DNA from: an uncultured Clostridia bacterium
GTDB lineage: Bacteria > Bacillota > Clostridia > Oscillospirales > Acutalibacteraceae
NCBI GenBank assembly: GCA_946185345.1
Contig: CAMHJC010000001.1
Span: 486-64,485, forward strand
Reading direction: 5' to 3'
DNA: 64,000 bases
The notes beneath the pieces were generated by a model. That model was given only the letters and a program-made list of their open reading frames with translations. It was not told where the DNA came from and ran no database searches. Made by a program: the position numbers and the translations under genes. Shown here one piece after another: positions 11,555-55,672 of the stretch. Every line of letters begins with the position of its first letter. Position 1 is the first letter of the stretch.

Positions 11555-11684
11555 TGTTTTTCTCCTCACTTTTAGATTTTTTTGTACCGGGTTTCCGAAA
11601 AGCCGGCATGCGCACGACAAAACCTGCGGCGGGCAACCGCAAGCCTGTCACGGCCATTCTGCCGCTTTTGGAACATGAGCCGGG

Positions 11685-17270: not shown

Positions 17271-17296
17271 TTCATTCACCTCATATATATGCTGAA

Positions 17297-17602: not shown

Positions 17603-17748
17603 GATAATACCTCCCGTCAGTATTATTATCATACTTAATAACTATATCACAATATATCTGTTTTACTGTAAAATCGTATCATTGAATAACCGCATCATGG
17701 CAGCAGGTTATTGTATGCATACCATTTTACTCCAAAACAGCGGCGGAG

Positions 17749-17988
17749 TCAAGCTTCACTTGTCTCCATATCGGCCATTACTTCTGAAATGTTGATGTTG
17801 CTTAATCTGTTATAGACTTTTTCGTAATTGCGGGCGACATCCGTAATGGCGCCGGCGCACATCTCCGTACCGATTCCCTGAAAATTCTCACCCCGGAGAT
17901 CTTCCGCAATTCCGTAAAGATCTTTGATGATTCTGCTCAGATCATTCTTGATATCACGTATCTGTTCCTTTGCTTCATATTCTGTCAT
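17749..17988 (-). CDS. 79-aa helical hairpin protein (FQG in place of WXG), putative effector partner
   Basis: ATG 17988 follows GGAGG. The track start at 18066 would overlap the upstream gene. Central ENFQGIG turn. Sits directly downstream of lipase effector 2. Confidence 0.55.
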   Translation of the reverse strand: MTEYEAKEQIRDIKNDLSRIIKDLYGIAEDLRGENFQGIGTEMCAGAITDVARNYEKVYNRLSNINISEVMADMETSEA

Positions 17989-18010
17989 ATAAAACAACCT
18001 CCTCGCATCT

Positions 18011-19519: not shown

Positions 19520-19523
19520 GCCG

Positions 19524-20243
19524 TCACGCTCCTATTGATTCTTCCATTTCGGCAGGCGTCACCGAACTGACGCCGTTATCTATCAGCACATTCTGCATTC
19601 CGAGCGGATCATAATTCTGAATGGCTGCCAGCGTCACGCCGGGATAATCCTCCATCTCCTGCCGGCAGGGTTCATAGGCATCCTCCCGCATGGCAAAAAC
19701 CAGTGCGCCCAGGTCGATCTCCAAAGATTTCCCTGTGTCGATCAGAGCGTTCAGCACCTTTTCGCCGTAATTATCTCCCGGAATAAATATCAGCCGCACA
19801 TGGAACCGCTCTATGCCGTGCCTGCTTAAGAATTCACTGACGCTGATGCCGGTATCGGTTTCACTGACGCTGTCGGCTATATACACTTCAGAAGCGCCGG
19901 TCAGGCCTGACTTCTGAAGATGGCCGTCAATCACTCTCTCCACTTCACGGCATTTGAGAGCGGTGACGTAATTTTCCGTAATGGTGCCGTCCTTGTCAAT
20001 GGTGGCGGTAAACACCAGATCGGGGTCGTTTTTGGGAACAATGTAAAGAAGCGCATGGCTTGTATTCAGTCTGTCGCCGATGTGTGTCGCGGTAAATTCG
20101 CAGCCATAGACATTTTCCAGATAACTGCACACCTTGTCAGCCGTAGGTTGATTGATTTCCAGACATGCGCCCATTCCGATCATCATGCCCAAAGCCATAA
20201 TAATTCCTCCGATACGAATGATAATCCGACTCATTTTTTTCAT
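19524..20243 (-). CDS. Lipoprotein, putative immunity protein (paralog of 21787-22446)
   Basis: Lipobox in signal MKKMSRIIIRIGGIIMALGMMIGMGAC. Shares YLENxY..(K/E)F and GT(I/F)(T/S)(E/D)NY motifs with the other lipoprotein. Its stop is 4 nt from the effector 2 start. Confidence 0.65.
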   Translation of the reverse strand: MKKMSRIIIRIGGIIMALGMMIGMGACLEINQPTADKVCSYLENVYGCEFTATHIGDRLNTSHALLYIVPKNDPDLVFTATIDKDGTITENYVTALKCREVERVIDGHLQKSGLTGASEVYIADSVSETDTGISVSEFLSRHGIERFHVRLIFIPGDNYGEKVLNALIDTGKSLEIDLGALVFAMREDAYEPCRQEMEDYPGVTLAAIQNYDPLGMQNVLIDNGVSSVTPAEMEESIGA

Positions 20244-20261
20244 AACAAGTCCCTCGTAAGA

Positions 20262-21773
20262 TTAACCAAATGATTTGATGATGTTGTTTTCCACATTTTC
20301 AAATTCCTGCGCCACATCGTTAAGATAATCGCCGCAGGCCTTCAGCTTTCTGCTGTACTCAGTGGTAACATCCGCGCTGAGAAGCTTGAGCCCGTCAAAC
20401 AGATTGAGCCTGAAATACAGTCGGTCCATATCACGGTCAATGGTATCCAGCTGACCGTTAATTTCCGCAATTCTGTCACAGTAGCGATAGAGCTTGCCGG
20501 TATCCACCCGAATCACCGTACCTGCCTCTGCGACCATCCGCTCGATCCTTCCGGATTTTTTATTATACCAGTCTACTACCTTGTTGAAAAAGTCGGTAAT
20601 TTTTTTCACATTCTGCTTGATCACATCAAAGGGAAGTTTCACGATATCGACTACCAGATTTTCAACCAAAAGCGAAAGGTTGTCAATTTCGACTCTGAGA
20701 TTGACCAGTGTTTTATCGTCAATCGTAAAAGGACTTGTCATGACGATGCCCAGAATGATTCCGCCGATGTCCGCCAGCGTATTCGTTATCGTACCGATCA
20801 CCGGTATGTCGGAAACCAGCGCCAATCCCACTGTAATATTATGGAGCCACTTGCAAACCTCTTCCTGCTCCACATACGCTTCCTCCCGGAAGTTGCCGTT
20901 TTCGTCAAAGCTGCCGTTTCTGTCGGCATAGGTGAGTATGCCGTAGCTGCCGTGATTGAATATGGCGTCTTCGGCTCTTTCGTTGTCCGTCATATCCTCC
21001 TTGTGCTTTTTATTCCGATCGGGAATGCCGGTATGGGCATCTTCCAGATCGGACTTGGAGCCATGACCGCTGTCGCTCTTGACATATACGGTTTCTCCGG
21101 CTATATCTATCAGCAGGATATCGACAAAATCCTTGGAGCCGTTGATATTTTTGATCTTGTCCTTGTTGCGCGCGATCTGCCGGTCATAGCCCTGGACAAA
21201 CTCCTTGCTGAATCCCTGGCCTTCATACGAAACGCACCTGTCAATCTTGTCTCCGCAGACAATGGTCACATACATCGCCTGATTGCCGCCGTTTGAATGG
21301 CCTGTGACATCCATATGGTCATACGGAAGCGATCTGATGTACTCCGCCGCGGCCTCCTGCGATTTCTGGGACATATCCCCGTAACCGTGCGTATTGTTGT
21401 TCCATTGTTCGCTTGATCCGCCGGTGCCTCGGAAGGCCACCGTCACATCCCCCGAAGGCTCAACAAAACAGGCGGCACGTATTCCGCCGTAATCCTTTTG
21501 TGTAGGATACGTGACCTTCAGACTGCACAGCTTGTCGTCCTTCAGAATCTCCTCGAACAGGTGCTTGACAGCGGGAAGATCCGATTCCAGACCTCCCGAA
21601 AGGCTCCTGGAGCGACTGCCGAAAATCTTTTCGATCTTCTCCATGGAAACGCTGCCGTCCTCATTCTGGAATTCCGCCAGAATCTTGCCGAGAGGCTTAT
21701 TGTAATGGCAGTCTGTAAGATCGGTGTACATCAATGTATCAAGTAAAAGCATCTGTCGTTCTGACAAAGCCAT
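20262..21773 (-). CDS. Putative T7SS lipase/esterase effector 1 (same architecture as 18011-19519)
   Basis: Nucleophile elbow is GHSNGGNQAMY. The C-terminal tail VIRVDTGKLYRYCDRIAEINGQLDTIDRDMDRLYFRLNLF... is paralogous to effector 2. Confidence 0.7.
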   Translation of the reverse strand: MALSERQMLLLDTLMYTDLTDCHYNKPLGKILAEFQNEDGSVSMEKIEKIFGSRSRSLSGGLESDLPAVKHLFEEILKDDKLCSLKVTYPTQKDYGGIRAACFVEPSGDVTVAFRGTGGSSEQWNNNTHGYGDMSQKSQEAAAEYIRSLPYDHMDVTGHSNGGNQAMYVTIVCGDKIDRCVSYEGQGFSKEFVQGYDRQIARNKDKIKNINGSKDFVDILLIDIAGETVYVKSDSGHGSKSDLEDAHTGIPDRNKKHKEDMTDNERAEDAIFNHGSYGILTYADRNGSFDENGNFREEAYVEQEEVCKWLHNITVGLALVSDIPVIGTITNTLADIGGIILGIVMTSPFTIDDKTLVNLRVEIDNLSLLVENLVVDIVKLPFDVIKQNVKKITDFFNKVVDWYNKKSGRIERMVAEAGTVIRVDTGKLYRYCDRIAEINGQLDTIDRDMDRLYFRLNLFDGLKLLSADVTTEYSRKLKACGDYLNDVAQEFENVENNIIKSFG

Positions 21774-21786
21774 TGTTACACACTCC

Positions 21787-22446
21787 CTATCTTATTACAG
21801 TATTCAAAGGCGGTACGGAACTGTAGCTGTCAACATACTGATCCACGCTTTCCTGACTGTCCAGCGCTCCGTACTGCTCCGGAGCAAGCGGATATAACGC
21901 CACATAGCCCCCGAAATGCTCCGACTGAAGATCAGAACAGACAGCATCAAAAAGCTTCTGATCCTGTCCGGCTGACGACGGAACGAGAATGTGGATGTCC
22001 GTCCTGAAATGCTCGGGATATCTGACACGATAGCTGTCGAAGTCGTCCATATCCACCGCTTCGTCCGGAAAATAGGACGAAGTGAAATAAAACGTAAATT
22101 TCGCATCCTGTATATGCCTGTTCAGGATGGTCTGTATTCTGTCGCGGCAGACGGCTTTTGCCATAATGCCGTAATAATTATCTGAAAATGTCCCGGAATC
22201 CCGACACACTACTATTTTCTCGTTTGGATATGCGTCAGAAGAAAAAAGGATCTCAGCGTAAGGTATATCCATGCTCGGATAAATCACCGTCACCAGGTCA
22301 AACTTCTGATGGTATTTGTTTTCCAGGTATTTCTGCGCCTCACCCGCAAAATCGTAATTCTTATCCATACAACCGCTCACTCCCGAAATCAAAATTATCG
22401 CTACGGTCAGAAAAATACTTATGATTGATTTTCTTGCCAAATTCAT
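21787..22446 (-). CDS. Lipoprotein, putative immunity protein
   Basis: Lipobox in signal MNLARKSIISIFLTVAIILISGVSGC. Lies immediately upstream of effector 1. Confidence 0.65.
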   Translation of the reverse strand: MNLARKSIISIFLTVAIILISGVSGCMDKNYDFAGEAQKYLENKYHQKFDLVTVIYPSMDIPYAEILFSSDAYPNEKIVVCRDSGTFSDNYYGIMAKAVCRDRIQTILNRHIQDAKFTFYFTSSYFPDEAVDMDDFDSYRVRYPEHFRTDIHILVPSSAGQDQKLFDAVCSDLQSEHFGGYVALYPLAPEQYGALDSQESVDQYVDSYSSVPPLNTVIR

Positions 22447-22575
22447 ACTCCGACATTCCTATCCGTTACTTCATCATAAGGCTGCTTACAGGCATACAGG
22501 CAACAGCCGGGAATTACAGCTTAGGTAAAACTTCCCGACTGTCGCCAATACGTGTAGAATAATCGAGGATGCTGA

Positions 22576-22884
22576 TTATCTGAATGCTTCAGCAATGCTG
22601 ATATTCTGTGCTTCAGCGGCGTCATAACCTTCGGCTACATTGGCTCTGAGGAATTTGACATATTCGTTGATGATATCCTCGTACAGCTGGAAGAACTTTG
22701 AGGCAAACTCATTGTATGCGTCAATGGTGGAAGCGGAAGCTTCACCTTCCCAGATATTTGCCAGATGATCTACGGTTTCCTTGCTGCGCTGGAGCTCTTC
22801 TGTGAGCTTTTTATTCAGACTTTCAAGCTGGCTTGCGATCTCAAGCACTTGATCTGTACTTATTCTGATACTGTTACCGGCCAT
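22576..22884 (-). CDS. esxA: WXG100 protein (EsxA-like)
   Basis: 102 aa. Central IWEGEA (WXG) motif, two-helix layout, GGAGG-type RBS. Confidence 0.85.
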   Translation of the reverse strand: MAGNSIRISTDQVLEIASQLESLNKKLTEELQRSKETVDHLANIWEGEASASTIDAYNEFASKFFQLYEDIINEYVKFLRANVAEGYDAAEAQNISIAEAFR

Positions 22885-22906
22885 GTAATTTCACCTCCGT
22901 AAAAAA

Positions 22907-23212
22907 TTAGTTTGTCAGCTTACCTACCTGTGTGATGTTGTCATCCTGACGGGCAACATAGTTGGCTCTCTGCTTGTCAAGCGCTTCGCTTGCAAGAGCG
23001 AGCTTCTCCGCCATTTTCTTCAGCTCCTCGGTAAAACCGGTAATGCGCTGAACATAAGCGAGATTGTCAGCACCGTCCCAGGCGCTGCCCATGGTGCTTG
23101 CAGCCTGCATCAGCTGAGTGTAAATCTGTGTATAATTCTCGGAACTTGCGCGAAGCTTCTGCGACGCGGCAGCCATCTCCTCAAATGATGCAACATAGAT
23201 TGTTTTTCCCAT
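22907..23212 (-). CDS. WXG100 protein (second paralog)
   Basis: SAWDGAD motif. ATG 23212 follows AAAGGAGAA; the track start is 23233. Confidence 0.8.
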   Translation of the reverse strand: MGKTIYVASFEEMAAASQKLRASSENYTQIYTQLMQAASTMGSAWDGADNLAYVQRITGFTEELKKMAEKLALASEALDKQRANYVARQDDNITQVGKLTN

Positions 23213-23241
23213 AACAAGGTTCTCCTTTCGCAAAAATTGAA

Positions 23242-23499
23242 TTATATCAGCATGAGCCGGGAGCCGTTATGTATGCCAAGCTCCGCAACAATCATGTTAA
23301 TATTGTAAATAATGCCTGTGTCGGCGTCGCACAATACCGCATCACGCGACGCCTTGTATTCTCCTCCGGAGAGATCGCTGAGCGCGCTTGCGACAAGCTG
23401 CACAACTTCGCTCATTCTGCTCTCGAGAGGAATGAACACGTCAAATGTTTCTCCCGACGCGGGAACGGATATTTCAACCAAAGCTTTGTTACTCAGCAT
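23242..23499 (-). CDS. esaB: YukD/EsaB-like ubiquitin-fold T7SS protein
   Basis: 85 aa. The pattern ...FDVFIP....M.EV.......L......(long loop)....L.ELGI.NGS.LMLI is typical of YukD. Overlaps the essC stop by 11 nt. Confidence 0.75.
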   Translation of the reverse strand: MLSNKALVEISVPASGETFDVFIPLESRMSEVVQLVASALSDLSGGEYKASRDAVLCDADTGIIYNINMIVAELGIHNGSRLMLI

Positions 23500-26400
23500 C
23501 TTCTTCCTCCGTTTTGCTCTTCAGCAGCTTAATCTTGACGCACTTGCCCTTCTGCATGACATAGCCGAAGCCGGAGCCGATCGGTTTGCGCAGCTCAGGC
23601 GTCATGGTGGTCGGCTTCAGATAGAACTGGTCAGAGAAGCCGTTGCCTATCCATATGCCGTCCACCTGCGATACATTCTGTTTGTACCACTTCTCGTACG
23701 ACACAGCTGAAATGGCGTTGATCTGCTCGGCGATGACGATATTGATCCTGTAATCGACACTGCCTTTTTCCAAAATCAGCGACAGCCGTTCGTTGGCGTC
23801 CTGACTGAGCACGCCTTTGAGGGCGGCCAGCGAATTGATGATGACAAATACGCTTTCAAACGCCTCGGGATCCTGTCCCGCCGCCAGAGCATCCTTGTAG
23901 GTGTTGTTTCTGTAGAGCACCAGATCAAAGAGCTTTCGCACTTCGCTCTCGCAGTCCTTGGCCGAATTGCAGAGCGTCAGCGTGCCGGTGGGAACGGAAA
24001 CGGATTTGGGCGCATCAAAAACGACGCCCTTTACCACTTCGGTTGTACCCGCCAATTCCGCAAAATCGGCGATAAAATCCTGATATTCATTGCCGGAGGA
24101 ATGAACCATATTGATATAGGCCGCTCCGAAGGGGTAATAGCAGACATTGAGGGTGCTTTTTTCCATACCGACAGGAATCCGGATCCTGTCATTCGGGCGG
24201 ATATATCCCCGCAGGAATTCAACATCCACCTTCTCGGGGAGAATGGGAACCCTCTTGGCGACTTCGCCTTTCCACGAGGCGCTGACCTTGCGGCAGTCGT
24301 CACGGATAAAGGCAAAGGGTACGCTCTCGTCGGTCAGGCTGGCCGCCTGGAATTCATACAGCGCTTCCTGCCGGATAAGGCCTCTGCCCTTGATTTTGGC
24401 AGGATAAAGACCCTCGGTCTTGCCCACAACGGAGGAATAATCCGATTCGTCGTTGAGCTGCATTACCAGGAGCTGCTTGAAATTCTGAAGCATTCTGAAT
24501 TTGACACTCGTTGTGCCGAGGGCGGTGAGTACAAAATAAATGCCGTACTTGGTGCCTTCACGGGAAAGGAATGCCACGGCCTCCTCCCGGTCGCTGTATG
24601 TCTCGGTAAACGCGGAGAAATTGTTGATGGCCACCACTATGGACGGCAGAGTTTCTCCCGAAGTGCCGATATAGGAGCTGTAATCGCCGCCGTAATTGGC
24701 AAAGAGCTTTTTGCGCCGTCCGGTCTCTTCGAGCAGCATCTTGAAGAGATTGCCTACCTTCTCGGCTTCATAGGAAAGGATCACATCGCCCACATGAGGC
24801 GCATCGGCAAATGCCCTGAGCGTCTCGGATGCGAAATCGAGTATGTAAAGGTTGACTTCGTCGGGCGTGTGCTCGTGAATGAGCGAATAGATCATTGCGT
24901 TGAGGAATGTGGTCTTGCCGCTTCCCGCAACACCGTAGACCACGGCGTTGCCTTCTTCGGATATGGGAAGCCGCAGCACGCACTGCCTCTGGTTGGCCGG
25001 ATCGTCAAGCTCGCCGATGACGGGATTGAGCTTGAATCGTTCGGATACGACCGAGTATTTCTTCTTGACGTCTTCCATCATGATCACGGCAGGAATAGGC
25101 TCGAGCCAGAGCGGTCTGATCTTAATGCCTTCTTCCTCGGCGGTTTTCTTCAGATATTCAGTGATAACGTCAAGCTGCTTTTTGGCGTTGCCTCCGGCAT
25201 TCTTTCTGCCGGGCTTTACTTCTTTGATAACGTGTCCGTTGCGGTCGATGACGGCAACGCTGTTGTCTTTTTCCTTGACGACCGTTTCAGAGGGATAGTA
25301 CGGCGCTCCCGACCATGCAGACTGTCCGAGTTCAAACAGCTCGTTATAGCCGACCTGAAGATAGAAACGTCCGGTATCGGTCAGCTCGGCGGCGTCGGGA
25401 CGCTTGAGCATATCCATACTGTCGGCACGCTCCTGCACCTTGAGACACACACGGAACTTACTGTTGCTCCATATCTGATCGTCAACCACGCCGCTCGGCT
25501 TCTGGGTCGCCAGTATCAGGTGAACGCCAAGGCTTCGGCCGATACGGGCGGCACTGACCAGCTGGGTCATGAATTCCGGCTGCTGGGTTTTCAGCTCGGC
25601 GAACTCGTCGGAGATGATAAACAGATGCTGCAGCGGCTCCTCCACGGTGCCTTCCCTGTAGAGCTTCTGATACTTGTAGATATCGATGTTGCTGACGCCG
25701 ACCTTCTTGCTGGCGTCGGCAAAAATCGCCTGTCGGCGCTTCAGCTCACTCTCGATGGAAACGAGCGATCTCTTGATGGCGGCGCCGTCGAGATTGGTGA
25801 TAATGCCGGCGGTGTGCGGCAGATGTTCAAATGACTTCGCCATGCCGCCGCCCTTGTAGTCGATGAGGATAAAGGCCACCTCGTTGGGGTGATAATTGAC
25901 GGCCAGCGAAAGAATATAGGTAATGATAAACTCGGATTTACCCGAACCGGTCATACCCGCGACCAGACCGTGAGGGCCGTGGAATTTTTCGTGCAGATCA
26001 AGCTTGAAGGTCTCGCCGAGGGTATCCACACCCACAGCGGCTTCAAGAGATTTGGTGGGATCATTGTCTCTCCATCTCGCCAGGGCGTTGAGATGTTCGA
26101 CCATGCCGACTCCGAACATTTCCAGGAAGGTCAGCGTTCTGGGCAGCTTAAAGCTTGTCGCGCTGTTATCCAGCGTGATATTGGCAAGTCTCACGCTCAG
26201 GTCGAGCGGATCCTGCAGCGGCTTTATGTCAGGGAAAAATTCCGTGCTCTTGCCGGAAATGTCGTTTTTGTCAAAGAGTCTCGCTCTGTTGCCCGACAGC
26301 TCGACCACCATGGAACATTCCTTGGGCAAATCCTTCAGCTCGTCATAGATGGATATCACGCTGATGTTGAGATTTTCCTTCTTGGCGAGCACCTGTTTGA

Positions 26401-28042
26401 CCACTTCCGTGTGAACCGCCAGCGTCTTGCTCATGGAGAATATGATGAAATAAGGAGATGTGTCCTTGAGATCATTCTCATTCATGGCAATGCGGGCCTC
26501 GACAATATTCTCAAGATAGGCGGAAAGTTCCTTCGCCTCGTTGTTGTTGGTGGCGATAAAGCGGAATTTATTGTCGTCGTTCCAGACATGCGGGAGCCAT
26601 TTGACAAATCCGAATTCATCCTCATCATCAATGTCATACAGGAACACCAGCTTGACTTCGTCATAGCTGTAGAGAGCCGACAGCTGAATAATCAGTCCCT
26701 TGGCGAATTCAGCCGCCTGCTGCTTCTGGCCTATGATACCCGAAATGTGATCTTCCGCCAGTGAATAGGTAATGGGTATGTTGTGAAGCTCCTTGGGTCT
26801 TTCGCACAGGATGTACATTTCCTCTTCCAGAATGTCGTCATCCGTGGAGAACCTGCGTTCGGAATAGGAAAACTCGGCGTCAAGAAGTCCGCTGCCGTGG
26901 CCGACTCTCACTCTGAGAAAATCATTCTGTCCCGGAGCGCGTTCCCACAGATTTCTCTGGACGTTTCTGATGCGGTTTTCACACTCCCCGACGGTAATGC
27001 AGTTCTCATTGAGGATGGAAACCTGTTCCTGGCTCGCCTCGTTGATTTTAACGGAGAGATGATTGAGGTATTCCCTGTATTTTTTCTGCCGGATGACTTC
27101 CTTTTCCTTTTTCCTCCGGCGCTCATATGTCTTGATCAGCATCGGCATGAGCAGCGTGCCGATCATCATGCTTCCGCCCATTACCATAGACATCACATTG
27201 CCGGTAATCGCGGCGTTTGTCACTGTCACTACCGACATCATGCCCATGGCCATCGAGGAACCGATCACCAGAGGCCACGGCATTTCCTCCGTAACGGGAC
27301 TGCTGGGAGGAGAATCAATTTTGAATTCCGCCGTTTCAATGTCTCTCTTGAATCTCGGGGAACGGTAAAAGAAATCCGGATCCCTGAGCTCGTATTCCTC
27401 CTCGTCATCCGACTCGGCTACCGGCTGGCTGATATACCGCTGCAGCTTGGCCGAAGCGGTAACCCTGCCGTCAGGATTATTAAATGCGATAAAATTCTTT
27501 CCTATTATAATCTTAAGGCCCATAATAAAGACCACATCGCCCACATAAAGCTCCGCTTTTTCTATTCTGGCCTTATTGACGAATGTTCCGTTGGTACTGC
27601 CGTTGTCAAAGATGTACCAGTGGCCGGACTTATAGGACAGCACCGCATGCCCGGAAGAAACAAAACTGTTGCTGAAACAGATATCGTTGCGCTCGTTTCT
27701 TCCTATAAAGATATCGACATCGTTTTCCACCAGATATTTGCTGAATTCCTGTCTGTCATCGGTAACAGGCTCGGTAAACACAAAAATCTTTTCTTTATTC
27801 TGCTTGGAAAGCACGTAAATACTCATGGGCTTTGCCACTGTATTCTTAAGCACGTTCTCCTTGCCGTCAGTCACCTTTACGGTGCGGTTTGACTTGAGCA
27901 CCCACTTGTCGCTGATGCCTTCAATGCCCACCAGTCTCATCGGGCCATTATCGGTTTCCTCATACAGCCAGTATCTGCCGGTAATTTTGTCAGGCAGCGA
28001 CACCGTATTCAGATATGACTTGGTAATCGTAGTAACAATCAT
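23489..28042 (-). CDS. essC: EssC/YukB-type FtsK-SpoIIIE T7SS ATPase with N-terminal FHA domains
   Basis: N-terminal FHA (GRNERNDICF...SSGHA...STNGTFVN), then 2 TM helices, then three P-loop ATPase domains (GMTGSGKSEF, GVAGSGKTTF, and a degenerate third). ATG 28042 is preferred (MIVTTITKSYL...; GGAGAAG upstream). The track start is 28114. Confidence 0.9.
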   Translation of the reverse strand: MIVTTITKSYLNTVSLPDKITGRYWLYEETDNGPMRLVGIEGISDKWVLKSNRTVKVTDGKENVLKNTVAKPMSIYVLSKQNKEKIFVFTEPVTDDRQEFSKYLVENDVDIFIGRNERNDICFSNSFVSSGHAVLSYKSGHWYIFDNGSTNGTFVNKARIEKAELYVGDVVFIMGLKIIIGKNFIAFNNPDGRVTASAKLQRYISQPVAESDDEEEYELRDPDFFYRSPRFKRDIETAEFKIDSPPSSPVTEEMPWPLVIGSSMAMGMMSVVTVTNAAITGNVMSMVMGGSMMIGTLLMPMLIKTYERRRKKEKEVIRQKKYREYLNHLSVKINEASQEQVSILNENCITVGECENRIRNVQRNLWERAPGQNDFLRVRVGHGSGLLDAEFSYSERRFSTDDDILEEEMYILCERPKELHNIPITYSLAEDHISGIIGQKQQAAEFAKGLIIQLSALYSYDEVKLVFLYDIDDEDEFGFVKWLPHVWNDDNKFRFIATNNNEAKELSAYLENIVEARIAMNENDLKDTSPYFIIFSMSKTLAVHTEVVKQVLAKKENLNISVISIYDELKDLPKECSMVVELSGNRARLFDKNDISGKSTEFFPDIKPLQDPLDLSVRLANITLDNSATSFKLPRTLTFLEMFGVGMVEHLNALARWRDNDPTKSLEAAVGVDTLGETFKLDLHEKFHGPHGLVAGMTGSGKSEFIITYILSLAVNYHPNEVAFILIDYKGGGMAKSFEHLPHTAGIITNLDGAAIKRSLVSIESELKRRQAIFADASKKVGVSNIDIYKYQKLYREGTVEEPLQHLFIISDEFAELKTQQPEFMTQLVSAARIGRSLGVHLILATQKPSGVVDDQIWSNSKFRVCLKVQERADSMDMLKRPDAAELTDTGRFYLQVGYNELFELGQSAWSGAPYYPSETVVKEKDNSVAVIDRNGHVIKEVKPGRKNAGGNAKKQLDVITEYLKKTAEEEGIKIRPLWLEPIPAVIMMEDVKKKYSVVSERFKLNPVIGELDDPANQRQCVLRLPISEEGNAVVYGVAGSGKTTFLNAMIYSLIHEHTPDEVNLYILDFASETLRAFADAPHVGDVILSYEAEKVGNLFKMLLEETGRRKKLFANYGGDYSSYIGTSGETLPSIVVAINNFSAFTETYSDREEAVAFLSREGTKYGIYFVLTALGTTSVKFRMLQNFKQLLVMQLNDESDYSSVVGKTEGLYPAKIKGRGLIRQEALYEFQAASLTDESVPFAFIRDDCRKVSASWKGEVAKRVPILPEKVDVEFLRGYIRPNDRIRIPVGMEKSTLNVCYYPFGAAYINMVHSSGNEYQDFIADFAELAGTTEVVKGVVFDAPKSVSVPTGTLTLCNSAKDCESEVRKLFDLVLYRNNTYKDALAAGQDPEAFESVFVIINSLAALKGVLSQDANERLSLILEKGSVDYRINIVIAEQINAISAVSYEKWYKQNVSQVDGIWIGNGFSDQFYLKPTTMTPELRKPIGSGFGYVMQKGKCVKIKLLKSKTEEEDAE

Positions 28043-28530
28043 TATACCTGCTTCTCCAATCGCAACTATCAGTATGAACGACGTACAATCATACAACGCA
28101 TTATTCAGAGACATGCTTATACATTCTCAATTTTATATTTTACATCGAGTTGCCAAAAATGTCAATATCTTTATAAAAGAAAGCATAATGTCGTAATTAT
28201 CGCAAGACTTCACTTATTAGACATAATTCACTCAATAAATACTGCTCAAATTTTAATAATCAAACTAACAAATCATCTTCAGACTTTCCTTTTTCTGCGG
28301 ATTAATCAAAAAAAAGCAATCAAAATCCGGCGATATTTTTGCACAGTGTCATATATCTTCGCTGTTTCCCATAGTTGCGTTTTTACAATCGGCTAGTTAA
28401 TTCATGAAAAAGAGGTGCGGTTTACCATCATTATTCATTTTTCAGTCTTAAGTTTTCCGTCTTAAGTTGGAAAATCCTGTCTTGGAAACCGAAGAATGAA
28501 AACTTAAAACTTAAAAAAGAATAATACAAA

Positions 28531-40029: not shown

Positions 40030-40330
40030 AATTTCTGATAGAGGTGCGGCATTCAAAAGAGTATCTCCGGCCGAGGCAGCCATTGCCGTCGGCAGGCCGG
40101 TGGGAAAGGTTGTGCCGCCGAAGGGCTTGTCCGTGTATGGCAGGGCATGCGCCTGGGTGTGCGGTCAACAGCCGTACAACTGTCATCATGCGTGATGGAG
40201 TGCTACTCAGATAATATTGCCGTTCGACCGGCGGAAAGACACATTTCAAACGAAGTCTGCACCGCTTTCCGGCAGCGGTTAATATTATAACGCATGGATG
40301 ACCGGTTATCAACCGGTTTTTTGTTTTTTT
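40030..40330 (+). promoter_or_regulatory. Lysine (L-box) riboswitch with terminator expression platform
   Basis: P1 is TCTGA (40034-40038) with TCAGA (40207-40211). Conserved AGAGGTGCG (40040-40048), GCCGAAGGG and TGGAGTGCTAC. Terminator ACCGGTT-ATC-AACCGGT plus a T-run is at 40301-40330. It lies upstream of asd. Confidence 0.8.
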
Positions 40331-40381: not shown

Positions 40382-41464
40382 ATGAAACAGTCTTACAACG
40401 TAGGTATTATCGGAGCCACAGGCATGGTTGGTCAGAGATTTGCCACTCTGCTGTCCAATCATCCCTGGTTCAAAGTGACCGCTCTCGCAGCCAGCGCACG
40501 CTCTGCGGGTAAAACATACAAAGAAGCGGTCGGCTCCCGCTGGAAGCTGTCCACTCCCATGCCGGCGGAGATGGAGGACATGATCATTCTCGACGCTGAC
40601 GCAGACATCGAAAAGATCACCGCTGCCGTTGACTTCGTTTTCTGCGCGGTCGATATGAAAAAAGACGAGATCCGCGCTCTGGAAGAAAAATACGCCAGGC
40701 ACGAATGTCCCGTTATGTCCAATAACAGCGCACACCGCTTCACCGAGGACGTTCCCATGATCATCCCCGAAATCAACGCAGACCATTCCCAGATCATCGA
40801 AGCGCAGCGCAAGCGCCTCGGCACCAAGCGCGGCTTTATCTCGGTCAAATCCAACTGCTCCATCCAAAGCTATGTTCCTGCGCTCACTCCCCTGCTCGAG
40901 TACGGCGTTCAGGACGTGCTCGCCTGCACCTACCAGGCCATCTCCGGCGCCGGCAAGAATTTTGAGACATGGCCTGAAATGATCGACAACCTCATTCCCT
41001 TCATCGGCGGCGAGGAAGAGAAGTCCGAAAAAGAGCCCCTCAAGGTCTGGGGCCAATATGAGGACGGCAAAATTACGCTGCGTGACGATATCCGCATCAC
41101 CACACAGTGCCTGAGAGTGCCTGTTTCCGACGGTCACACGGCTGCGGTCTTCGTGCGCTTCAAGAACAAGCCCACCATCGAGGAAATCAAGGCAAAATGG
41201 GCGGCCTTCTCCGGCGAACCCCAGAAGCTCGGCCTTCCCAGCGCCCCCAAGCAGTTCATTCACTACTTCGAGGAGGACAACAGACCGCAGGCCAAGCTCG
41301 ACCGCAATCTGGAAGGCGGCATGGCTGTCAGCTGCGGACGCCTTCGTGAAGACACTCAGTACGACTACAAATTCGTCTGCCTTTCCCACAACACCCTCCG
41401 CGGCGCTGCCGGAGGCGCTGTCCTCATGGCGGAACTCCTCTGCGCACAGGGATGGCTGGACTGA
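40382..41464 (+). CDS. asd: Aspartate-semialdehyde dehydrogenase
   Basis: GATGMVGQRF NAD motif; SNCSI active-site Cys. Full length, 360 aa. Confidence 0.95.
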   Translation: MKQSYNVGIIGATGMVGQRFATLLSNHPWFKVTALAASARSAGKTYKEAVGSRWKLSTPMPAEMEDMIILDADADIEKITAAVDFVFCAVDMKKDEIRALEEKYARHECPVMSNNSAHRFTEDVPMIIPEINADHSQIIEAQRKRLGTKRGFISVKSNCSIQSYVPALTPLLEYGVQDVLACTYQAISGAGKNFETWPEMIDNLIPFIGGEEEKSEKEPLKVWGQYEDGKITLRDDIRITTQCLRVPVSDGHTAAVFVRFKNKPTIEEIKAKWAAFSGEPQKLGLPSAPKQFIHYFEEDNRPQAKLDRNLEGGMAVSCGRLREDTQYDYKFVCLSHNTLRGAAGGAVLMAELLCAQGWLD

Positions 41465-41466
41465 AC

Positions 41467-41560
41467 GCGCAGCGGAGCTGCGCTTAGAGAATAGAGAATA
41501 GAGAATAGATAATAGATACTAGTTTCGGAGCGCTTCGCGCTGGAATATATATTTTTTATT
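41467..41560 (+). repeat. Heptamer-array + GC-hairpin intergenic module (copy A)
   Basis: Hairpin GCGCAGC-GGA-GCTGCGC (41467-41483). Heptamers TAGAGAA x3, TAGATAA and TAGATAC (41485-41522). Then TTTCGG-AGCGC-TTC-GCGCT-GGAATATA. Confidence 0.8.
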
Positions 41561-41643
41561 CGGTACGCTATTTCTTATTTGGAATACAATAGTTAATATA
41601 GGGCTTTTACAAATTACATTCAAAATGAAAGAAGGACTGTCGC

Positions 41644-42531
41644 TTGAAGAACACAATTTTTACCGGTTCCGGCGTTGCCATCGTCACTCCTATGAACGAG
41701 GACGGCTCCGTTAACTATGAAGCTTACGCCGATCTGATTGATTTCCAGATCGAAAACAAGACCGACGCCATCATCACCTGCGGCACCACAGGTGAATCCT
41801 CCACTCTCAGCGATGACGAGCACTGCGAGGTCATCCGATTCGCCATCGAGCAGACCGCCGGCAGAGTTCCGGTTATCGCCGGAACAGGCAGCAACGACAC
41901 CAAGTACGCCATCGAGCTTTCCAAGGCCGCCGAGGAAATGGGTGCGGACGGCCTGCTGCTGGTCACTCCCTACTACAACAAGACTTCTCAGCGGGGGTTG
42001 GTCGCCCACTTCGGCATGATCGCCGAGAGCGTCAAGACGCCTATCATTCTCTACTCCGTCCAGAGCAGAACCGGCGTCAATATCGCTCCCGAAACCGCCT
42101 ATGAGCTTTCCAAGTACGATACCATCGCCGCCATCAAGGAGGCCAGCGGCAACATCTCGCAGGTTGCCAAAATCAGAGCCATGTGCGGCGACAATCTCGA
42201 TGTCTACTCCGGCAACGACGATCAGATCGTTCCGCTGCTTTCACTCGGCGGCAAGGGTGTGATTTCCGTTCTCGCCAATGTCGCTCCCGAAGTCGCCCAC
42301 AACATCTGCCAGTATTACTTTGACGGCAAGGTCGCCGAAAGCGCCGCTCTCCAGCTTGAATACCTCGACCTCTGCAACGACCTCTTTATCGATGTCAATC
42401 CCATTCCCGTCAAGGAAGCCCTCAATATGATGGGCATGAACGCCGGTCCCTGCCGTATGCCTCTCTACGAAATGACCGAAGCCGCCAAGGATAAGCTCGC
42501 CGCCACTCTCGCAAGACACGGACTTTTATGA
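41644..42531 (+). CDS. dapA: 4-hydroxy-tetrahydrodipicolinate synthase
   Basis: TTG start. GTTGES motif; full-length DapA-like sequence. Confidence 0.95.
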   Translation: MKNTIFTGSGVAIVTPMNEDGSVNYEAYADLIDFQIENKTDAIITCGTTGESSTLSDDEHCEVIRFAIEQTAGRVPVIAGTGSNDTKYAIELSKAAEEMGADGLLLVTPYYNKTSQRGLVAHFGMIAESVKTPIILYSVQSRTGVNIAPETAYELSKYDTIAAIKEASGNISQVAKIRAMCGDNLDVYSGNDDQIVPLLSLGGKGVISVLANVAPEVAHNICQYYFDGKVAESAALQLEYLDLCNDLFIDVNPIPVKEALNMMGMNAGPCRMPLYEMTEAAKDKLAATLARHGLL

Positions 42532-42544
42532 CGCTCGCCTGGGT

Positions 42545-42630
42545 AAAAAACGTTCGCTTAGAGAATAGATAATAGATAATAAAGAATAGATAATAGTTTC
42601 GGAAGCCCTTCGGGCTTGAAAAGTAATATT
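42545..42630 (+). repeat. Heptamer-array + GC-hairpin intergenic module (copy B)
   Basis: CGTTCGCT, then TAGAGAA/TAGATAA/TAGATAA/TAAAGAA/TAGATAA (42559-42596), then TTTCGG-AAGCCC-TTC-GGGCTT-GAAAAGTA. It aligns with copy A over about 65 nt. Confidence 0.8.
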
Positions 42631-42702
42631 TCCACATGCTTTCGGTTGTAATTCCGGCCGGAAGCATGTGTTGTAATTGGGATAAATGGAGCTGAGTGAA
42701 AA

Positions 42703-43184
42703 ATGTGCCTGATCTGTGACAGAATTAATATGATCAAAAAGGGCGTCAATCCTTATTTTGTCAGGGAGCTTGCAACGGGGTACGTCGTGATCGGCGACAA
42801 CCAGCATTTTTATGGCTACACGCTTTTCCTTTACAAGCATCACGGGGACAAGACCGAGCTCTTTCATCTGGATTCCGCTGAACGGGCGAAATTCATGGAG
42901 GAGATGCAAGCGTGGCCGAGTCGGTTTTCCGTGCCTTCGGCGCCGAAAAGATGAATTATGAGCTGCTCGGCATGGGCGACTCGCACCTGCACTGGCATTT
43001 GTTCCCACGCAGAACCGGCGACATTGAAAACTGCGGCAATCACGGCAAAGGTCCCGTCTGGTGGTACCCTATGGAAAAGATGTATGCCGACGACAACCGA
43101 CCTTCCGAGATTCAGCTTGCCGAGATGAAGCAAAGACTTGCCGCTGAGCTGGACAGGCTGCTGCCGGATAAGACTTCCGATTAA
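42703..43184 (+). pseudogene. HIT-family hydrolase interrupted by a 1-nt frameshift (or sequencing error)
   Basis: ORF 42703-42954 (MCLICDRINMIKKGVNPYFVRELATGYVVIGDNQ...FMEEMQ) and ORF 42912-43184 (VAESVFRAFGAEKMNYELLGMGDSHLHWHLFPRR) together form one HIT protein. The frames meet at about 42908-42912. Confidence 0.75.
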
Positions 43185-43190
43185 TCCAAG

Positions 43191-43862
43191 GTGAAACAAT
43201 TGATGGATTTGATAAAAAAATGTAAGGATAAACTGGACGGCATACGGAAACCGGCGCATAACGGCAAACAATCAAACATAGTCACTGACGGAGGAATATT
43301 TCTGCTTATCGGCATGCTGCTCGGGGTATTCTCCAAATGGCTGGACTGTCTCGGCATCAACGACGGCGTGTGGTGGCAGCGTCTTCTGGGCATGATCGAC
43401 CTCGGAAATCTGCTTTCGCTTTTTCCGGTATGGCTTCTGATTGCGCTGGCCATCGCTGTTTACGCCGGATCGCCGCTGAAGGCGGCGCTGCGTGTTTTCC
43501 TCTTTTTTGCCGGAATGTGCGCGGCCTATCACATCTCTTCCATACTCATTGCCGGATTCAATCCTATGGACTACATGATGATCTGGTACGGATTCACAGC
43601 CATTTCTCCTCTGCTCGCCGCTGTCTGCTGGTACGCCAAAGGAACATCCATCCCGTCGCTCGTGATTACCACGCTGGTTCTCTGGAATATGATGTCCTGC
43701 TGCTTTGCGATCGGTTTCTGGTATTTTGATTTCAGAAGCGTCATGGACACGCTGATTTTTATCGGAGCGGCCGTCATTCTCCATGTTTCCCCGAAAAATA
43801 CGGCAATCAGCCTGGCCGGCGCCTTGGCATTGGCTTTGCTGTTCCGGTTGCCTTTAGGTTAA
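43191..43862 (+). CDS. Hypothetical polytopic membrane protein
   Basis: About 6 TM helices. The start may instead be ATG 43203, which follows AAGGTG. No family recognised. Confidence 0.6.
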   Translation: MKQLMDLIKKCKDKLDGIRKPAHNGKQSNIVTDGGIFLLIGMLLGVFSKWLDCLGINDGVWWQRLLGMIDLGNLLSLFPVWLLIALAIAVYAGSPLKAALRVFLFFAGMCAAYHISSILIAGFNPMDYMMIWYGFTAISPLLAAVCWYAKGTSIPSLVITTLVLWNMMSCCFAIGFWYFDFRSVMDTLIFIGAAVILHVSPKNTAISLAGALALALLFRLPLG

Positions 43863-43894
43863 TAAAATCAAAAAACGAAAGGACGTAAAAATTG

Positions 43895-44653
43895 ATGACA
43901 AAAATCATTCTCTGCGGCTGCAACGGAAAAATGGGCGCCGCCATTACGGGTATTGTCAACGAGCGCAGCGACTGCGAAATCGTCGCCGGCGTTGACGTGA
44001 ATACCGCCAACATTCACGGTTATCAGGTGTATTCCGGCATTGCCGACGTGACCGAAAAAGCCGACGTGATCATTGACTTCTCCCATCCCAGCACGCTGGA
44101 TTCCATTCTGACCTATGCGGTGGAAAAGTCGGTTCCCGCCATTCTCTGCACCACCGGCTATTCCGAAGCCCAGATCAGCAGGATCGAGGAAACTTCCCAA
44201 AAGATCGCCCTTTTCCATTCCGGCAACATGTCGCTCGGCATCAACCTGCTGATTGCCCTTTCCCGCAAGGCGGCGCAGATTCTCGGCGGCAGCTTCGATG
44301 TGGAAATCGTCGAGAAGCACCACAATCAGAAGCTCGACGCGCCCAGCGGCACCGCTCTGATGATTGCCAAGGCCATCAGCGAGGAACTTCCCTATGAATC
44401 ACGCTACGAATACGACCGCCACAGCGTCCGCAGAAAGCGTGAGCGCAGTGAAATCGGCATTCATTCGGTCCGGGGCGGCAGCATTGTCGGCGAGCACGAG
44501 GTCATCTTCGCCGGACACGACGAAGTGGTCACCATCGCCCACAGCGCACAGTCTAAGGGTGTATTTGCCGCCGGCGCCGTGAACGCTGCGGTCTATCTCT
44601 GCGGCAAGCCCGCAGGACTCTACGACATGAACGATCTGATTGCCGAAGCCTGA
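43895..44653 (+). CDS. dapB: 4-hydroxy-tetrahydrodipicolinate reductase
   Basis: N-terminus is MTKIILCGCNGKMGAAI. Motifs EKHHNQKLDAPSGTA and HSVRGG. Confidence 0.9.
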   Translation: MTKIILCGCNGKMGAAITGIVNERSDCEIVAGVDVNTANIHGYQVYSGIADVTEKADVIIDFSHPSTLDSILTYAVEKSVPAILCTTGYSEAQISRIEETSQKIALFHSGNMSLGINLLIALSRKAAQILGGSFDVEIVEKHHNQKLDAPSGTALMIAKAISEELPYESRYEYDRHSVRRKRERSEIGIHSVRGGSIVGEHEVIFAGHDEVVTIAHSAQSKGVFAAGAVNAAVYLCGKPAGLYDMNDLIAEA

Positions 44654-51202: not shown

Positions 51203-51522
51203 TTCCTGAAAAAATTTAGATGATTGTAAAACTTGATTGACAGCGTAAATCAGGGCTTTTACACTTGATACTATTAATCCGGCAATAAAATATCTATCCA
51301 TTTTTTCTTCAGCCGAGGGAAGGATTTTTTTGGTTTTTGCCTTTTGCGTATTCGCCTGACTGCATTGCTTTTCCCAGTGCGTCGCAGCGAGGGGCGCTGC
51401 CCTTAACCTGCGAGGAGGTCCAGATCCCCTCGACTCCCACGCTCACATTCGTTCGCTAGTTGTGCGCTGCGCTATGCTTTTTTTCTATTTCTTTTACAAT
51501 CGCCTATTCCTGAAAAAATTTA
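51203..51522. mobile_element. Possible ~280-bp miniature insertion with inverted ends and flanking 16-nt direct repeat
   Basis: The direct repeat TTCCTGAAAAAATTTA occurs at 51203-51218 and 51507-51522. The inverted repeat is GATTGTAAAA (51222-51231) with TTTTACAATC (51492-51501). The interior holds the 25-nt sequence (51273-51297) also found at 47320-47344. Confidence 0.4.
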
Positions 51523-54394: not shown

Positions 54395-54436
54395 GATTTC
54401 CGAGTGTTCAGAACAACGGCAAACGGAAGGTTAGAT

Positions 54437-54627
54437 GAGTGTGGAGTGTGAAGTGTGGAGTGTGGAGTAAATGAGCGCCTGTGACGCTGGAATATAAACG
54501 CTCACTTGGAAAAAAGACGTTCGCTTTTATAGTGAAACCCAATCAGTCTGAGAAAAGCCATTAAGCGAGCTTGCGAGCGTATATTTTTCAAGCCCGCAGG
54601 GCTTCCAAAACTCCACACTCCACACTT
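54437..54627. repeat. Heptamer-array inverted-repeat structure (copy C) enclosing two hairpin modules
   Basis: Heptamers GAGTGTG/GAGTGTG/AAGTGTG/GAGTGTG lie at 54437-54468. An 18-bp perfect inverted repeat pairs AAGTGTGGAGTGTGGAGT (54451-54468) with ACTCCACACTCCACACTT (54610-54627). Inner motifs CGCTGGAATATA and AAGCCC-GCA-GGGCTT match copies A and B. Confidence 0.8.
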
Positions 54628-54688
54628 AAGCACAGCTCCGCTGTGCGTTTTACGGTCTTCGGATAATGGAAGCAGAGAAGGAGATACA

Positions 54689-55672
54689 ATGAGCAACATA
54701 AAAATATTTCTAAAAAACTTCACCGCCGGCAGGAGGGCGCTTTTCAAGCGCATGGGAATCTATCTCGGATCGGCGCTGGCGGTCTTTGAGGCCGCCAATA
54801 TCCTGCTTGAGGACGGAGCGGTCGCCAATTGGTGCGCCGGAATGACCCTGGGCGGAATCAGTCTGCGCTCGGTGCTCACCAATGTCTTTGTCTATCTCGG
54901 TGCGGGAGCGGTTCTGGCGCTGCTGCGTCAGGGATCCTTTGCGCATTACTGCATGAATATCATCGGCACCGACGTCAAAATCGAAATCGCCATGTCGGAC
55001 ATCTTCTCCAACCGGGGAGAAATCGTCGTGCCGTGCAATACCACTTTTTCCGGCCGCAGGGAAGTCATCGGGGGCAGAAGCATTCAGACACAGATGACCG
55101 AGCGTCTCCGCCTGCCGAAAGACGAAAACGGTTCGGCGGAAAACGGCGGCGAATACTTCGAGAACGCCGTGAAGCAGGCGCTTCAGCGTCCCGAGTGCCG
55201 GAAACGGCGCATCGAGGGACAGAAGGAGCTTGCCGGCCGGCTGTACGACATTTACCAATACGGCACCATGGCGCCCGTGACATTCCCTGTGGACGGAAAG
55301 CAGCGCAATGTCATTTTGTTAGCGGTCGCCGAAATGCTCGAGCCGGACAAGCCCAAAACCGACGGGCAGCATCTGATGAAGAGCATTGACGATATGTGGG
55401 AGCAGATTGCCGCCTGCCGCACCCGGGAACAGACACTTGTTGTGCCGATTCTCGGCACCGGAAGCGCAGGCATTACCGACAAGCCGCAGCAGACGGTGGC
55501 AAGGTATATTCTGCGCACATTCGCCGACAACGCCCACAGGCTCGGCATCAAAAAGCTCATTCTCAGCGTTTATCCGCAGGATTATCTGGACGACAAAATC
55601 AATCTGGAAGAGCTGCGCTGCTACGCCGATTACCTGTGCAGATTCCCCGACAGCGATTTTAATATTTCGTAA
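54689..55672 (+). CDS. Hypothetical protein: N-terminal 2 TM helices + C-terminal macro-like (DUF6430-like) domain
   Basis: RBS AGAAGGAG. TM helices are IYLGSALAVFEAANILL and LTNVFVYLGAGAVLALL. Motifs VVPCNTTF...IGGRSIQ and LVVPILGTGSAG resemble macro-fold phosphate-binding loops. Family assignment is tentative. Confidence 0.5.
   Translation: MSNIKIFLKNFTAGRRALFKRMGIYLGSALAVFEAANILLEDGAVANWCAGMTLGGISLRSVLTNVFVYLGAGAVLALLRQGSFAHYCMNIIGTDVKIEIAMSDIFSNRGEIVVPCNTTFSGRREVIGGRSIQTQMTERLRLPKDENGSAENGGEYFENAVKQALQRPECRKRRIEGQKELAGRLYDIYQYGTMAPVTFPVDGKQRNVILLAVAEMLEPDKPKTDGQHLMKSIDDMWEQIAACRTREQTLVVPILGTGSAGITDKPQQTVARYILRTFADNAHRLGIKKLILSVYPQDYLDDKINLEELRCYADYLCRFPDSDFNIS

Follow-up and report, generated by a model that had tools for sequence, protein, structure and literature searches.

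Why should one gene of a conserved biosynthetic operon be bracketed by two copies of the same block of sequence? In a 64,000-nt stretch of contig CAMHJC010000001.1 from an uncultured Clostridia bacterium (here called the window, meaning this whole stretch), the spacers on either side of dapA, in an asd-dapA-dapB operon, each carry a module in which a tandem array of 7-nt units is followed by a short GC-rich hairpin. Judging from sequence comparison, we conclude that these modules, M1 and M2, are probably independent members of a clade-restricted, dispersed, mosaic family of intergenic repeats of rumen Clostridia. The comparisons show that the family is present in many unrelated spacers, that one site or more has been newly occupied by it, that its arrays change in steps of 7 nt and that boundary and hairpin subtypes are exchanged at one and the same site. 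A full module comprises, in order, a boundary (a CGCTCRC direct repeat or a short hairpin), a heptamer array with the core AATA-R, a linker ending in GG and a hairpin closed by GRA, and such modules occur singly or as tail-to-tail inverted pairs that make up long palindromes.

Modules M1 and M2 and their variation among relatives

M1 (41467-41560, + strand) lies in the 179-nt spacer between asd (40382-41464) and dapA (41644-42531; TTG start, ribosome-binding site AGAAGGA), and M2 (42532-42621, + strand) lies in the 171-nt spacer downstream of dapA. M1 starts 2 nt past the asd stop codon with a perfect 7-bp boundary hairpin, GCGCAGC-GGA-GCTGCGC (41467-41483), a feature absent from the initial annotation of this locus. 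The heptamer array that follows (41485-41522) reads TAGAGAA three times, TAGATAA, TAGATAC and TAG, for which Tandem Repeats Finder (TRF) reports a period of 7, 4.6 copies and 96% matches; next come the linker TTTCGG (41523-41528), the hairpin AGCGC-TTC-GCGCT (41529-41541) with a closing GGAA up to 41545, and an AT/U-rich tail, TATATATTTTTTATT (41546-41560), that is lineage-specific and unconserved. M2 begins right after the dapA stop codon with a long-form boundary motif, CGCTCGC-CTGGGTAAAAAA-CGTTCGCT (42532-42558), and continues with an array of TAGAGAA, TAGATAA twice, TAAAGAA, TAGATAA and TAG (42559-42596; TRF period 7, 5.4 copies), the linker TTTCGG (42597-42602) and the hairpin AAGCCC-TTC-GGGCTT (42603-42617), closed by GAAA (42618-42621). 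All of these parts are on the + strand.

Both modules thus run from a GC-rich boundary through an array of period 7 and a linker with a final GG to a GC hairpin of 5-6 bp, GRAA and AT-rich sequence; a U-rich tail is found in M1 only, not in M2, and the flanking UUUC...GRAA bases are able to lengthen the hairpin stem. M1 and M2 form an ungapped direct repeat of 49 nt at 90% identity, are alignable over ~75 nt and have a period of 7 in both arrays, so the earlier proposal that two homologous direct-repeat modules flank dapA was borne out. The pattern (TAG-N4)x3-TAG gave three matches, all within M1 (0.00 expected from 100 shuffles); in the register of the family, the M1 units read RNK-AATA. At the position of the M1 boundary, relatives have a direct-repeat form, CGCTCRC-N3-CGYTCGCT. 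Like M2, the segment at 54499-54525 and the M1 spacers of loci L208 and L213-L215 have the long-form boundary, with an A-run that varies, and the M2-type segment of linker, hairpin and GAAA adjoins period-7 arrays in identical form at many loci of rumen metagenome-assembled genomes (MAGs).

Relatives, taken as contigs whose DapA is 88-100% identical to that of the window, invariably carry modules both in the asd-dapA spacer and downstream of dapA, and these modules are hypervariable. Array length differs in 7-nt steps at identical DapA (L201 vs L202, +7 nt; L007 vs L009, L010 and L012, +14 nt), and the arrays of L013, L014 and L015 also differ despite identical DapA, the comparative sequences all being short-read metagenome assemblies, a kind of data in which the number of repeat units may be assembled wrongly. 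Variation in 7-nt units, which the initial annotation had suggested looking for among strains, was therefore found, and the arrays are slippage-prone as it had supposed. The M2 array ranges from 4 to ~10 units, and for the M1 array both unit type and copy number differ between strains; in DapA group P0036, M1 exists as two unrelated alleles, one having a short boundary motif and the other a long one, in which the length of the A-run varies too. At the asd-dapA site the hairpin is of the AGCGC type in some lineages and of the AAGCCC type in others, and downstream of dapA some lineages have a lone module, others a composite built with CTGAAAA units.

Two further observations concern the boundary. 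The A-run within the long boundary motif (CGCTCAC-CTGG-A7-8-CGTTCGCT) varies in length in the asd-dapA spacers of L208, L213, L214 and L215, with identical DapA; it is a second slippage-prone tract inside the module. L211 has lost, at positions 1320-1400, both the boundary motif and the stop codon of asd, and the asd open reading frame (ORF; 362 aa) ends on a stop codon inside the heptamer array.

A family of copies at unrelated loci

A scan of the whole window for a period of 7 revealed a third locus, M3 (54436-54646), between a gene for a patatin-like protein and a gene with a ThsA-Macro domain, in which two inverted modules with GTGGAGT units are paired. Its left half, M3a (54436-54496, +), consists of (GTGGAGT/GTGAAGT)x5, the hairpin AGCG-CCTGTGA-CGCT (54474-54488) and GGAATATA. 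The centre (54499-54579) has boundary motifs in opposite orientations, CGCTCAC...CGTTCGCT (54499-54525, +) and CGCTCGCAAGCTCGCT (54564-54579, -), and the right half, M3b (54580-54646, -), is a complete module ending in GAAAAATATA, with the boundary hairpin GCACAGC-GGA-GCTGTGC (54630-54646), the array TTAAGTGTGGAGTGTGGAG (54610-54629) followed by TTTTGG, and the hairpin AAGCCC-TGC-GGGCTT (54590-54604), all on the - strand. The two arms are complementary along 53 nt, and the composite is predicted to fold at -84.9 kcal/mol (z = -6.5). Since the outer hairpin of M3b is the 5´ hairpin of M1 with two compensated changes (GCACAGC/GCTGTGC), the unusual 5´ end of M1 is a genuine boundary variant. A decayed copy at 51440-51475 (+) retains the boundary CGCTCACATTCGTTCGCT and a truncated GCGC-TGC-GC hairpin, with no heptamers, and the 64-kb window has 4-5 copies in all.

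The spacer between the patatin and ThsA-Macro genes measures 294 nt with M3, in the window and in L227 (which has an identical patatin-like protein), and 22-30 nt without it in L217-L226 (patatin-like protein 77-85% identical). M3 is therefore an insertion of ~265 nt into a short spacer, and a presence/absence polymorphism at an orthologous site; no other observation speaks more strongly for the occupation of new sites. The gene directly 3´ of M3 (54689-55672, +) encodes a ThsA-type Macro domain (Pfam PF20016), and the order glgB, patatin, ThsA-Macro, ksgA is conserved around the site.

We also scanned 185,579 species genomes for the hairpin pattern GGAAGCCC-N3-4-GGGCTTGAAA. Compared with ~35 matches expected by chance, 55 were found, of which 16 were in rumen Clostridia and 'Ruminococcus' MAGs, at many loci and nearly all with a period-7 array directly 5´; such an array stood beside the hairpin in none of the 39 matches from other taxa. 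When the fetched loci were scanned for a period of 7, further copies were added: AGCGC-type modules with the boundary CGCTCACATTCGTTCGCT, further stem variants and palindromic composites. In total, modules were observed at no fewer than 15 distinct, unrelated intergenic loci in ~10 rumen Clostridia MAGs, so the initial annotation's proviso that they might be unique to the dapA locus does not hold, with copies both elsewhere in the window and in rumen MAGs. In L028, L036 and L037, an AAGCCC-type module is joined tail-to-tail to an inverted AGCGC-type module, and L007-M2 is an inverted pair as well, like M3 of the window. Some composites have boundary motifs in inverted orientation at their two ends (L070 5750-5940; window 54499-54579 and 54630-54646), and single modules have one at one end. 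No modules were detected among viral contigs or plasmids. Searched at the Rfam gathering threshold, the whole window gave only a lysine riboswitch and three tRNAs, and a permissive Rfam search of 41400-42720 gave chance-level matches only, none across the module spacers.

The placement of the modules relative to genes was assessed with a codon-usage gene caller that had been validated on known genes. Where a solitary module lies between co-directional genes, it is in sense, with the array ahead of the hairpin, at 10 independent loci and antisense at 2, and the remaining antisense copies are partners within composites. The boundary element lies 0-5 nt past the upstream stop codon, and the hairpin ends 26-270 nt ahead of the next start codon. 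Assignment of the leading strand from GC skew was tried and given up, the skew being weakly negative throughout and uninformative.

The stems are paired across the family. For 21 aligned hairpins, chosen without the hairpin pattern, 92.9% of the cells of the 6-bp stem are paired, three of the six pairs have changes on both sides, and the covariation score is above all 500 shuffles and all slid controls; these data support a family-wide conserved stem held by compensated changes. Two hairpin subtypes are standard in the family, AGCGC (11 unique copies) and AAGCCC (6), and the loops are T(T/G)C or 4-nt variants. Seven of the nine doubly changed cells are one GC-to-CG flip that divides these subtypes, and the independent covariation events are therefore few; the other variants are AAGCGC, AAACGC and GGTGC. 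The stem differences between M1 and M2 had initially been taken as compensatory changes with pairing preserved, and of this the preserved pairing stands for the family as a whole, but the notion of a local compensatory event does not, as M1 and M2 carry two dispersed subtypes. Pairing of the 5´ AGCGCT with a hairpin arm as an antiterminator was discarded because it does not covary with AAGCCC-type hairpins.

The array units are also constrained. In 125 units from GAATA-class arrays, AATA is 96-99% invariant, the next position is a purine in 123, and the two remaining positions are free, so that the conserved unit is AATA-R-N-K, not UAG; UAG is present in 62% of units, the rest having UAA or UAC, with units such as TAATGAA, TACTGAA and TAAAGAA. 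The other unit types (CTGAAAA, ATGAAAG, GTGAAAT, GTGAAGT, GTGGAGT and CGGAATG) are 1-3 substitutions away from GAATA-class units and are homogenised within each array. An AATA-R-N-K unit gives a TAR stop every 7 nt, hence in all three frames, and most arrays have TAR or TGA every 7 nt. An all-frame stop barrier by design was nevertheless rejected, given that CGGAATG and GTGGAGT arrays lack stops and that A/T/G-rich heptamers carry a stop about half the time by chance. Helical phasing of the boundary half-sites for a DNA-binding dimer was likewise rejected, the spacings of 8, 10, 12, 18 and 19 nt being unphased.

Similar arrays are found well beyond the rumen clade. A scan of metagenome contigs for four GAATANN units returned at least 120 stretches (loci L074-L193), and neither the rumen hairpin nor the boundary motif accompanied any of 132 GAATANN arrays sampled from metagenomes. 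Among the matches listed, the (GAATANN)n arrays came from many habitats and from contigs of 25-72% GC, and a reverse-complement array lay within 250 nt downstream in 23/98, compared with 3/98 upstream and 4/98 in a reversed control. An adjacent GC hairpin was not enriched among the matches listed (10/90 downstream, 7/90 upstream, 14/180 control windows), and on these counts a general array-then-hairpin rule in bacteria was rejected. Paired metagenome arrays, again among the matches listed, are strongly polarised, with the purine-rich array first and its complement second. A switch to a second, different heptamer is frequent within arrays (L086, L103, L109, L160 and L171). A few look-alikes on unrelated contigs (L105 at ~900-1030, -; L191 at 5375-5480, +) combine a GAATANN array with xxGTGG, a GC hairpin with another stem and TCA(A/G)AAA, which suggests sister families in other taxa.

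How a dispersed repeat family might arrive at this pattern can be outlined. Arrays would grow and shrink through replication slippage, and copies may spread and be homogenised by some route of transposition or recombination. The modules are presumably co-transcribed with their operons, and the purine-rich, C-poor array may be tolerated only in sense or where its complement pairs with it, perhaps because the antisense tract, which contains C and is poor in G, could serve as a loading site for Rho. Selection against a single-stranded antisense array, rich in pyrimidines and containing C, would explain both why antisense copies are mainly paired within composites and why convergent pairs predominate metagenome-wide. 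Any effect on asd-dapA expression would be generic at most, through uncoupling of cistrons or through mRNA processing or stability via the flanking hairpins. It would not be lysine-specific, because a lysine riboswitch upstream of asd (40031-40213, +; RF00168, 83.5 bits) already provides the asd-dapA operon with a lysine sensor, independently of the modules.

Several points weigh against this account. At 77-85% protein identity, the empty-site relatives of M3 have diverged too far for the ends of the insertion, or a target-site duplication, to be placed, and neither a transposase nor a target-site duplication nor other mobilising machinery came to light. The bias in orientation is modest, was estimated from ~12 loci (binomial p ~0.04) and is confounded with gene-strand and replication bias, and copies were counted in ~64 kb of this genome and in ~8-kb pieces of others. 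The constraint on AATA-R is not predicted by slippage and neutral drift, and hints at sequence-specific recognition. Comparison of sense and antisense folding does not discriminate between RNA and DNA structure: it was rejected as a means of parting selection at the two levels, with composites scoring 3 vs 3 and the sense edge of single modules explained by composition. Finally, any function of the modules at the RNA level, like the way in which they spread, is inferred from sequence.

The host operon and competing explanations

The gene order around dapA is read as one operon, composed of the riboswitch, asd, dapA, a frameshifted HIT-family gene, a membrane ORF of 223 aa, dapB (43892-44653) and a gene for an H+-pyrophosphatase. 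A terminator-like hairpin (40300-40318) with a T-run lies between the riboswitch and asd. Just 3´ of M2 is a 16-bp hairpin, CACATGCTTTCGG...CCGGAAGCATGTG (42633-42670, +), which is kept with small changes in every relative examined and may either terminate the operon or be an element in its own right. The HIT-family gene (42703-43184, +) is broken into ORFs of 83 and 90 aa, and is intact, at 153-185 aa, in L194, L195 and L207; the split is either a frameshift or pseudogene or else an assembly error. The interval from dapA to dapB (42532-43891; loci L001-L018 and L194-L216) is a small hot spot of gene turnover within the conserved biosynthetic operon, its content by lineage being no gene, HIT, HIT with a 219-aa membrane protein, or SMI1_KNR4 with DUF6487 and a ~209-aa protein. 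These lineage-specific genes start beyond the 16-bp hairpin. Farther away, the window contains a type VII (WXG100/Esx-type) secretion cluster (16953-28114, -), with three WXG100 proteins, a YukD protein and a 1541-aa ORF, and near it a 2542-aa ORF (3992-11620).

The array could alternatively be a periodic platform for an oligomeric RNA-binding protein of the HutP or TRAP kind, or for a ribosome-associated protein such as has been proposed for TAACTGA repeats, with array and hairpin controlling processing, stability or translation of the downstream cistron in many operons. We consider this unlikely, and the uneven variation within units is the main reason for leaving it some weight. The retention of AATA-R with two free positions, in 125 units and at a minimum of 15 loci, is what recognition by a protein could produce, as are the sense placement within operons, directly after stop codons and with the hairpin 26-100 nt ahead of the next start, the stem kept by covariation and a 7-nt period equal to the spacing of the HutP site; for TAACTGA arrays, MacGregor proposes protein binding (PMC4679880). 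UAG itself is unconserved, however, and the core has changed in ~7 of 32 arrays, to GTGGAGT, CTGAAAA or ATGAAAG, with the flanking parts retained. The copy number of 2-10 differs among near-identical strains, the array does not overlap the stem, so that no obvious structural switch on binding presents itself, and no HutP- or TRAP-like gene was detected among the ~40 window proteins scanned. Stated for the clade as a whole, the modules would be a new class of intercistronic RNA element with an unstructured tract, showing AAUA-R every 7 nt and so a stop codon in each of the three frames, read by an oligomeric RNA-binding or ribosome-associated protein, in which bracketing hairpins and tract would set processing, stability or translational coupling in dozens of operons. 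The chances of this are slim in our judgement; if true, it would be the first defined function for bacterial heptamer arrays.

It is very improbable that the two modules form a pair specific to dapA, with M1 as an asd/dapA attenuator or terminator, M2 as the operon terminator and their stems co-evolving by compensation. Such a pair would fit the retention of both modules at both positions in every relative examined, and a U-rich tail does lie past the GGAA of M1 in the window and in the L007 lineage, but this U-tract is missing in the L001, L013 and L194 lineages. A terminator role, one of those first suggested, also fails to fit the hairpins themselves: GRAA follows each hairpin, a U-run follows M1 in some lineages only, starting past GGAA, and a terminator scan called neither the M1 nor the M2 hairpin. 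The operon is already controlled by the lysine riboswitch and has the separate conserved hairpin at 42633-42670 after M2, the hairpin type at the asd-dapA site switches among lineages, and the same modules stand beside many unrelated genes, a distribution by which the dapA-specific explanation is largely refuted. For annotation of the window, the flanks of dapA are generic repeat copies, not to be read as lysine-pathway regulators.

We give hardly any credence to the modules as recombination sites or scars, whether integron attC-like cassette boundaries or the ends of a mobile dapA cassette. The varying gene content between dapA and dapB, together with hairpin sites downstream of ORFs that are reminiscent of attC, might suggest such an origin, but the genes that vary begin beyond the hairpin at 42633-42670 and not at M2 itself, and modules elsewhere flank ordinary operon genes. 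The idea of a cassette-like dapA insertion, also raised at the outset, is contradicted by the asd-dapA-dapB order, which is kept in all relatives, by the direct, not inverted, arrangement of the modules and by their presence at many unrelated loci. No integrase or recombinase is encoded near the modules, the resolvase of L007 and L010 lying >2.8 kb upstream, beyond queA; dapA is syntenic, and GTTRRRY core sites were not searched for specifically. The possibility that the modules are a mutational by-product, with a stable hairpin stalling replication and seeding adjacent 7-nt slippage with neither mobility nor function, would suit the arrays lying always directly 5´ of the hairpin in this clade, their strain-variable copy number and the slippage proposed for heptamers in the literature, but can be all but dismissed given the conserved boundary, linker and near-identical hairpin at unrelated loci (pointing to whole-module copying, not independent origin), the insertion of a complete 265-nt composite at one site, the metagenome-wide arrays without enrichment of adjacent hairpins and the AATA-R constraint, which speaks against neutral drift.

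Comparison with known repeat families and RNA elements

With the dispersed repeat family as the preferred explanation, the modules can be set beside described systems. Among RNA elements, the HutP site of the Bacillus subtilis hut operon resembles the window arrays in having UAG followed by a 4-nt spacer, six units of which precede the hairpin. It differs in that many units, in the window and in relatives, have UAA or UAC, that the array does not overlap the stem and that the modules are not confined to one operon. With UAG in only 62% of units, arrays that end before the stem and no HutP domain among the scanned window proteins, and with other cores in relatives, a HutP-like UAG-N4 site was rejected. 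A TRAP site has 9-11 (G/U)AG triplets spaced by 2-3 nt; the modules have 4-nt spacing (period 7) and 2-10 units. Omega-type operators of inc18 plasmids are contiguous WATCACW heptads, direct or inverted, that lie at promoters and bind one ribbon-helix-helix dimer per heptad. The unit sequence of the modules is different, their arrays follow stop codons within operons, and the plasmid search gave no match, all of which sets them apart from such operators as far as sequence can tell. No Rfam family matched the modules in the searches described above.

The dispersed palindromes of Proteobacteria offer another likeness. Like REP, BIME and REPIN sequences, the modules include short, GC-rich, imperfect palindromes dispersed in presumably transcribed spacers and at operon 3´ ends, occur near stop codons either singly or as inverted doublets predicted to form long hairpins, show presence/absence polymorphism and are excluded from promoter-type (divergent) spacers. 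The strong predicted fold of M3 (z = -6.5) and the inverted pairs in L007-M2, L028, L036 and L037 correspond to the REP/REPIN inverted doublet. REPs differ in lacking a tandem heptamer arm and have no sequence similarity to the modules, and for the Y1 transposases (RAYTs) associated with them, we detected no transposase or recombinase among the ~40 window proteins scanned. The difference between spacers of 294 nt and of 22-30 nt around M3 is also the kind of presence/absence polymorphism expected of miniature inverted-repeat transposable elements.

In overall architecture, the modules recall the BOX elements of Streptococcus pneumoniae (boxA-boxB(n)-boxC) and mycobacterial MIRUs, which are mosaic intergenic repeats with conserved ends and variable internal tandem units. 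The resemblance extends to location within operons, mostly in one orientation, and to a copy number that varies among strains. The internal unit of the modules is 7 nt, compared with 45 nt for boxB and 46-101 nt for MIRUs, and the modules are not known to share sequence homology with either.

The array itself belongs with the heptanucleotide long simple-sequence repeats (SSRs). An excess of intergenic 7-nt tandem repeats in bacteria has been known since 1990-2007, and we know of no function or mechanism established for bacterial heptamer arrays. The initial annotation had considered such arrays unusual for bacterial intergenic DNA, a view contradicted by reports, as cited in two later papers, that heptanucleotides are the most abundant long-SSR class in many prokaryotes, with polymerase slippage proposed for the excess of 7-nt units (Mrazek 2007, cited in PMC4679880 and PMC4692102). 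In Xanthomonas, 70-75 convergent GGGAATC array pairs per genome are on record (PMC4692102), and for TAACTGA arrays 7-nt indels between strains, short repeat-free spacers in relatives and stop codons in the forward orientation are described and a post-transcriptional binding role is proposed (PMC4679880).

Compared with the cyanobacterial STRR sequences, Xanthomonas GGGAATC, Nostoc GGGGAYT and the TAACTGA of Beggiatoaceae, cyanobacteria and Bacteroidetes, the modules share intergenic 7-nt tandems of mixed heptamers, 7-nt indels, short empty spacers, convergent inverted pairs and forward stop codons; their arrays are intergenic, have a period of 7 beyond chance and are polymorphic in length by unit steps. 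Unlike these long SSRs, the module array is one of several parts, the others being the boundary motif, the linker and the specific GC hairpin; its units, A-rich and with two free positions each, form no G-quadruplexes, it is short, with 2-10 imperfectly repeated units, and the host is a rumen Firmicutes/Clostridia clade. The rumen module family is thus a clade-specific variant of the described heptamer-array phenomenon, with conserved companion parts. It is the conserved boundary and hairpin that make copies, empty sites, orientation and unit constraint countable, and the arrays sampled here are constrained by position (AATA-R), in sense when solitary, placed right after stop codons and continuing to enter new spacers. 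Should complete genomes and transcriptomes bear this out, the family would offer a tractable system for asking why heptamers occur.

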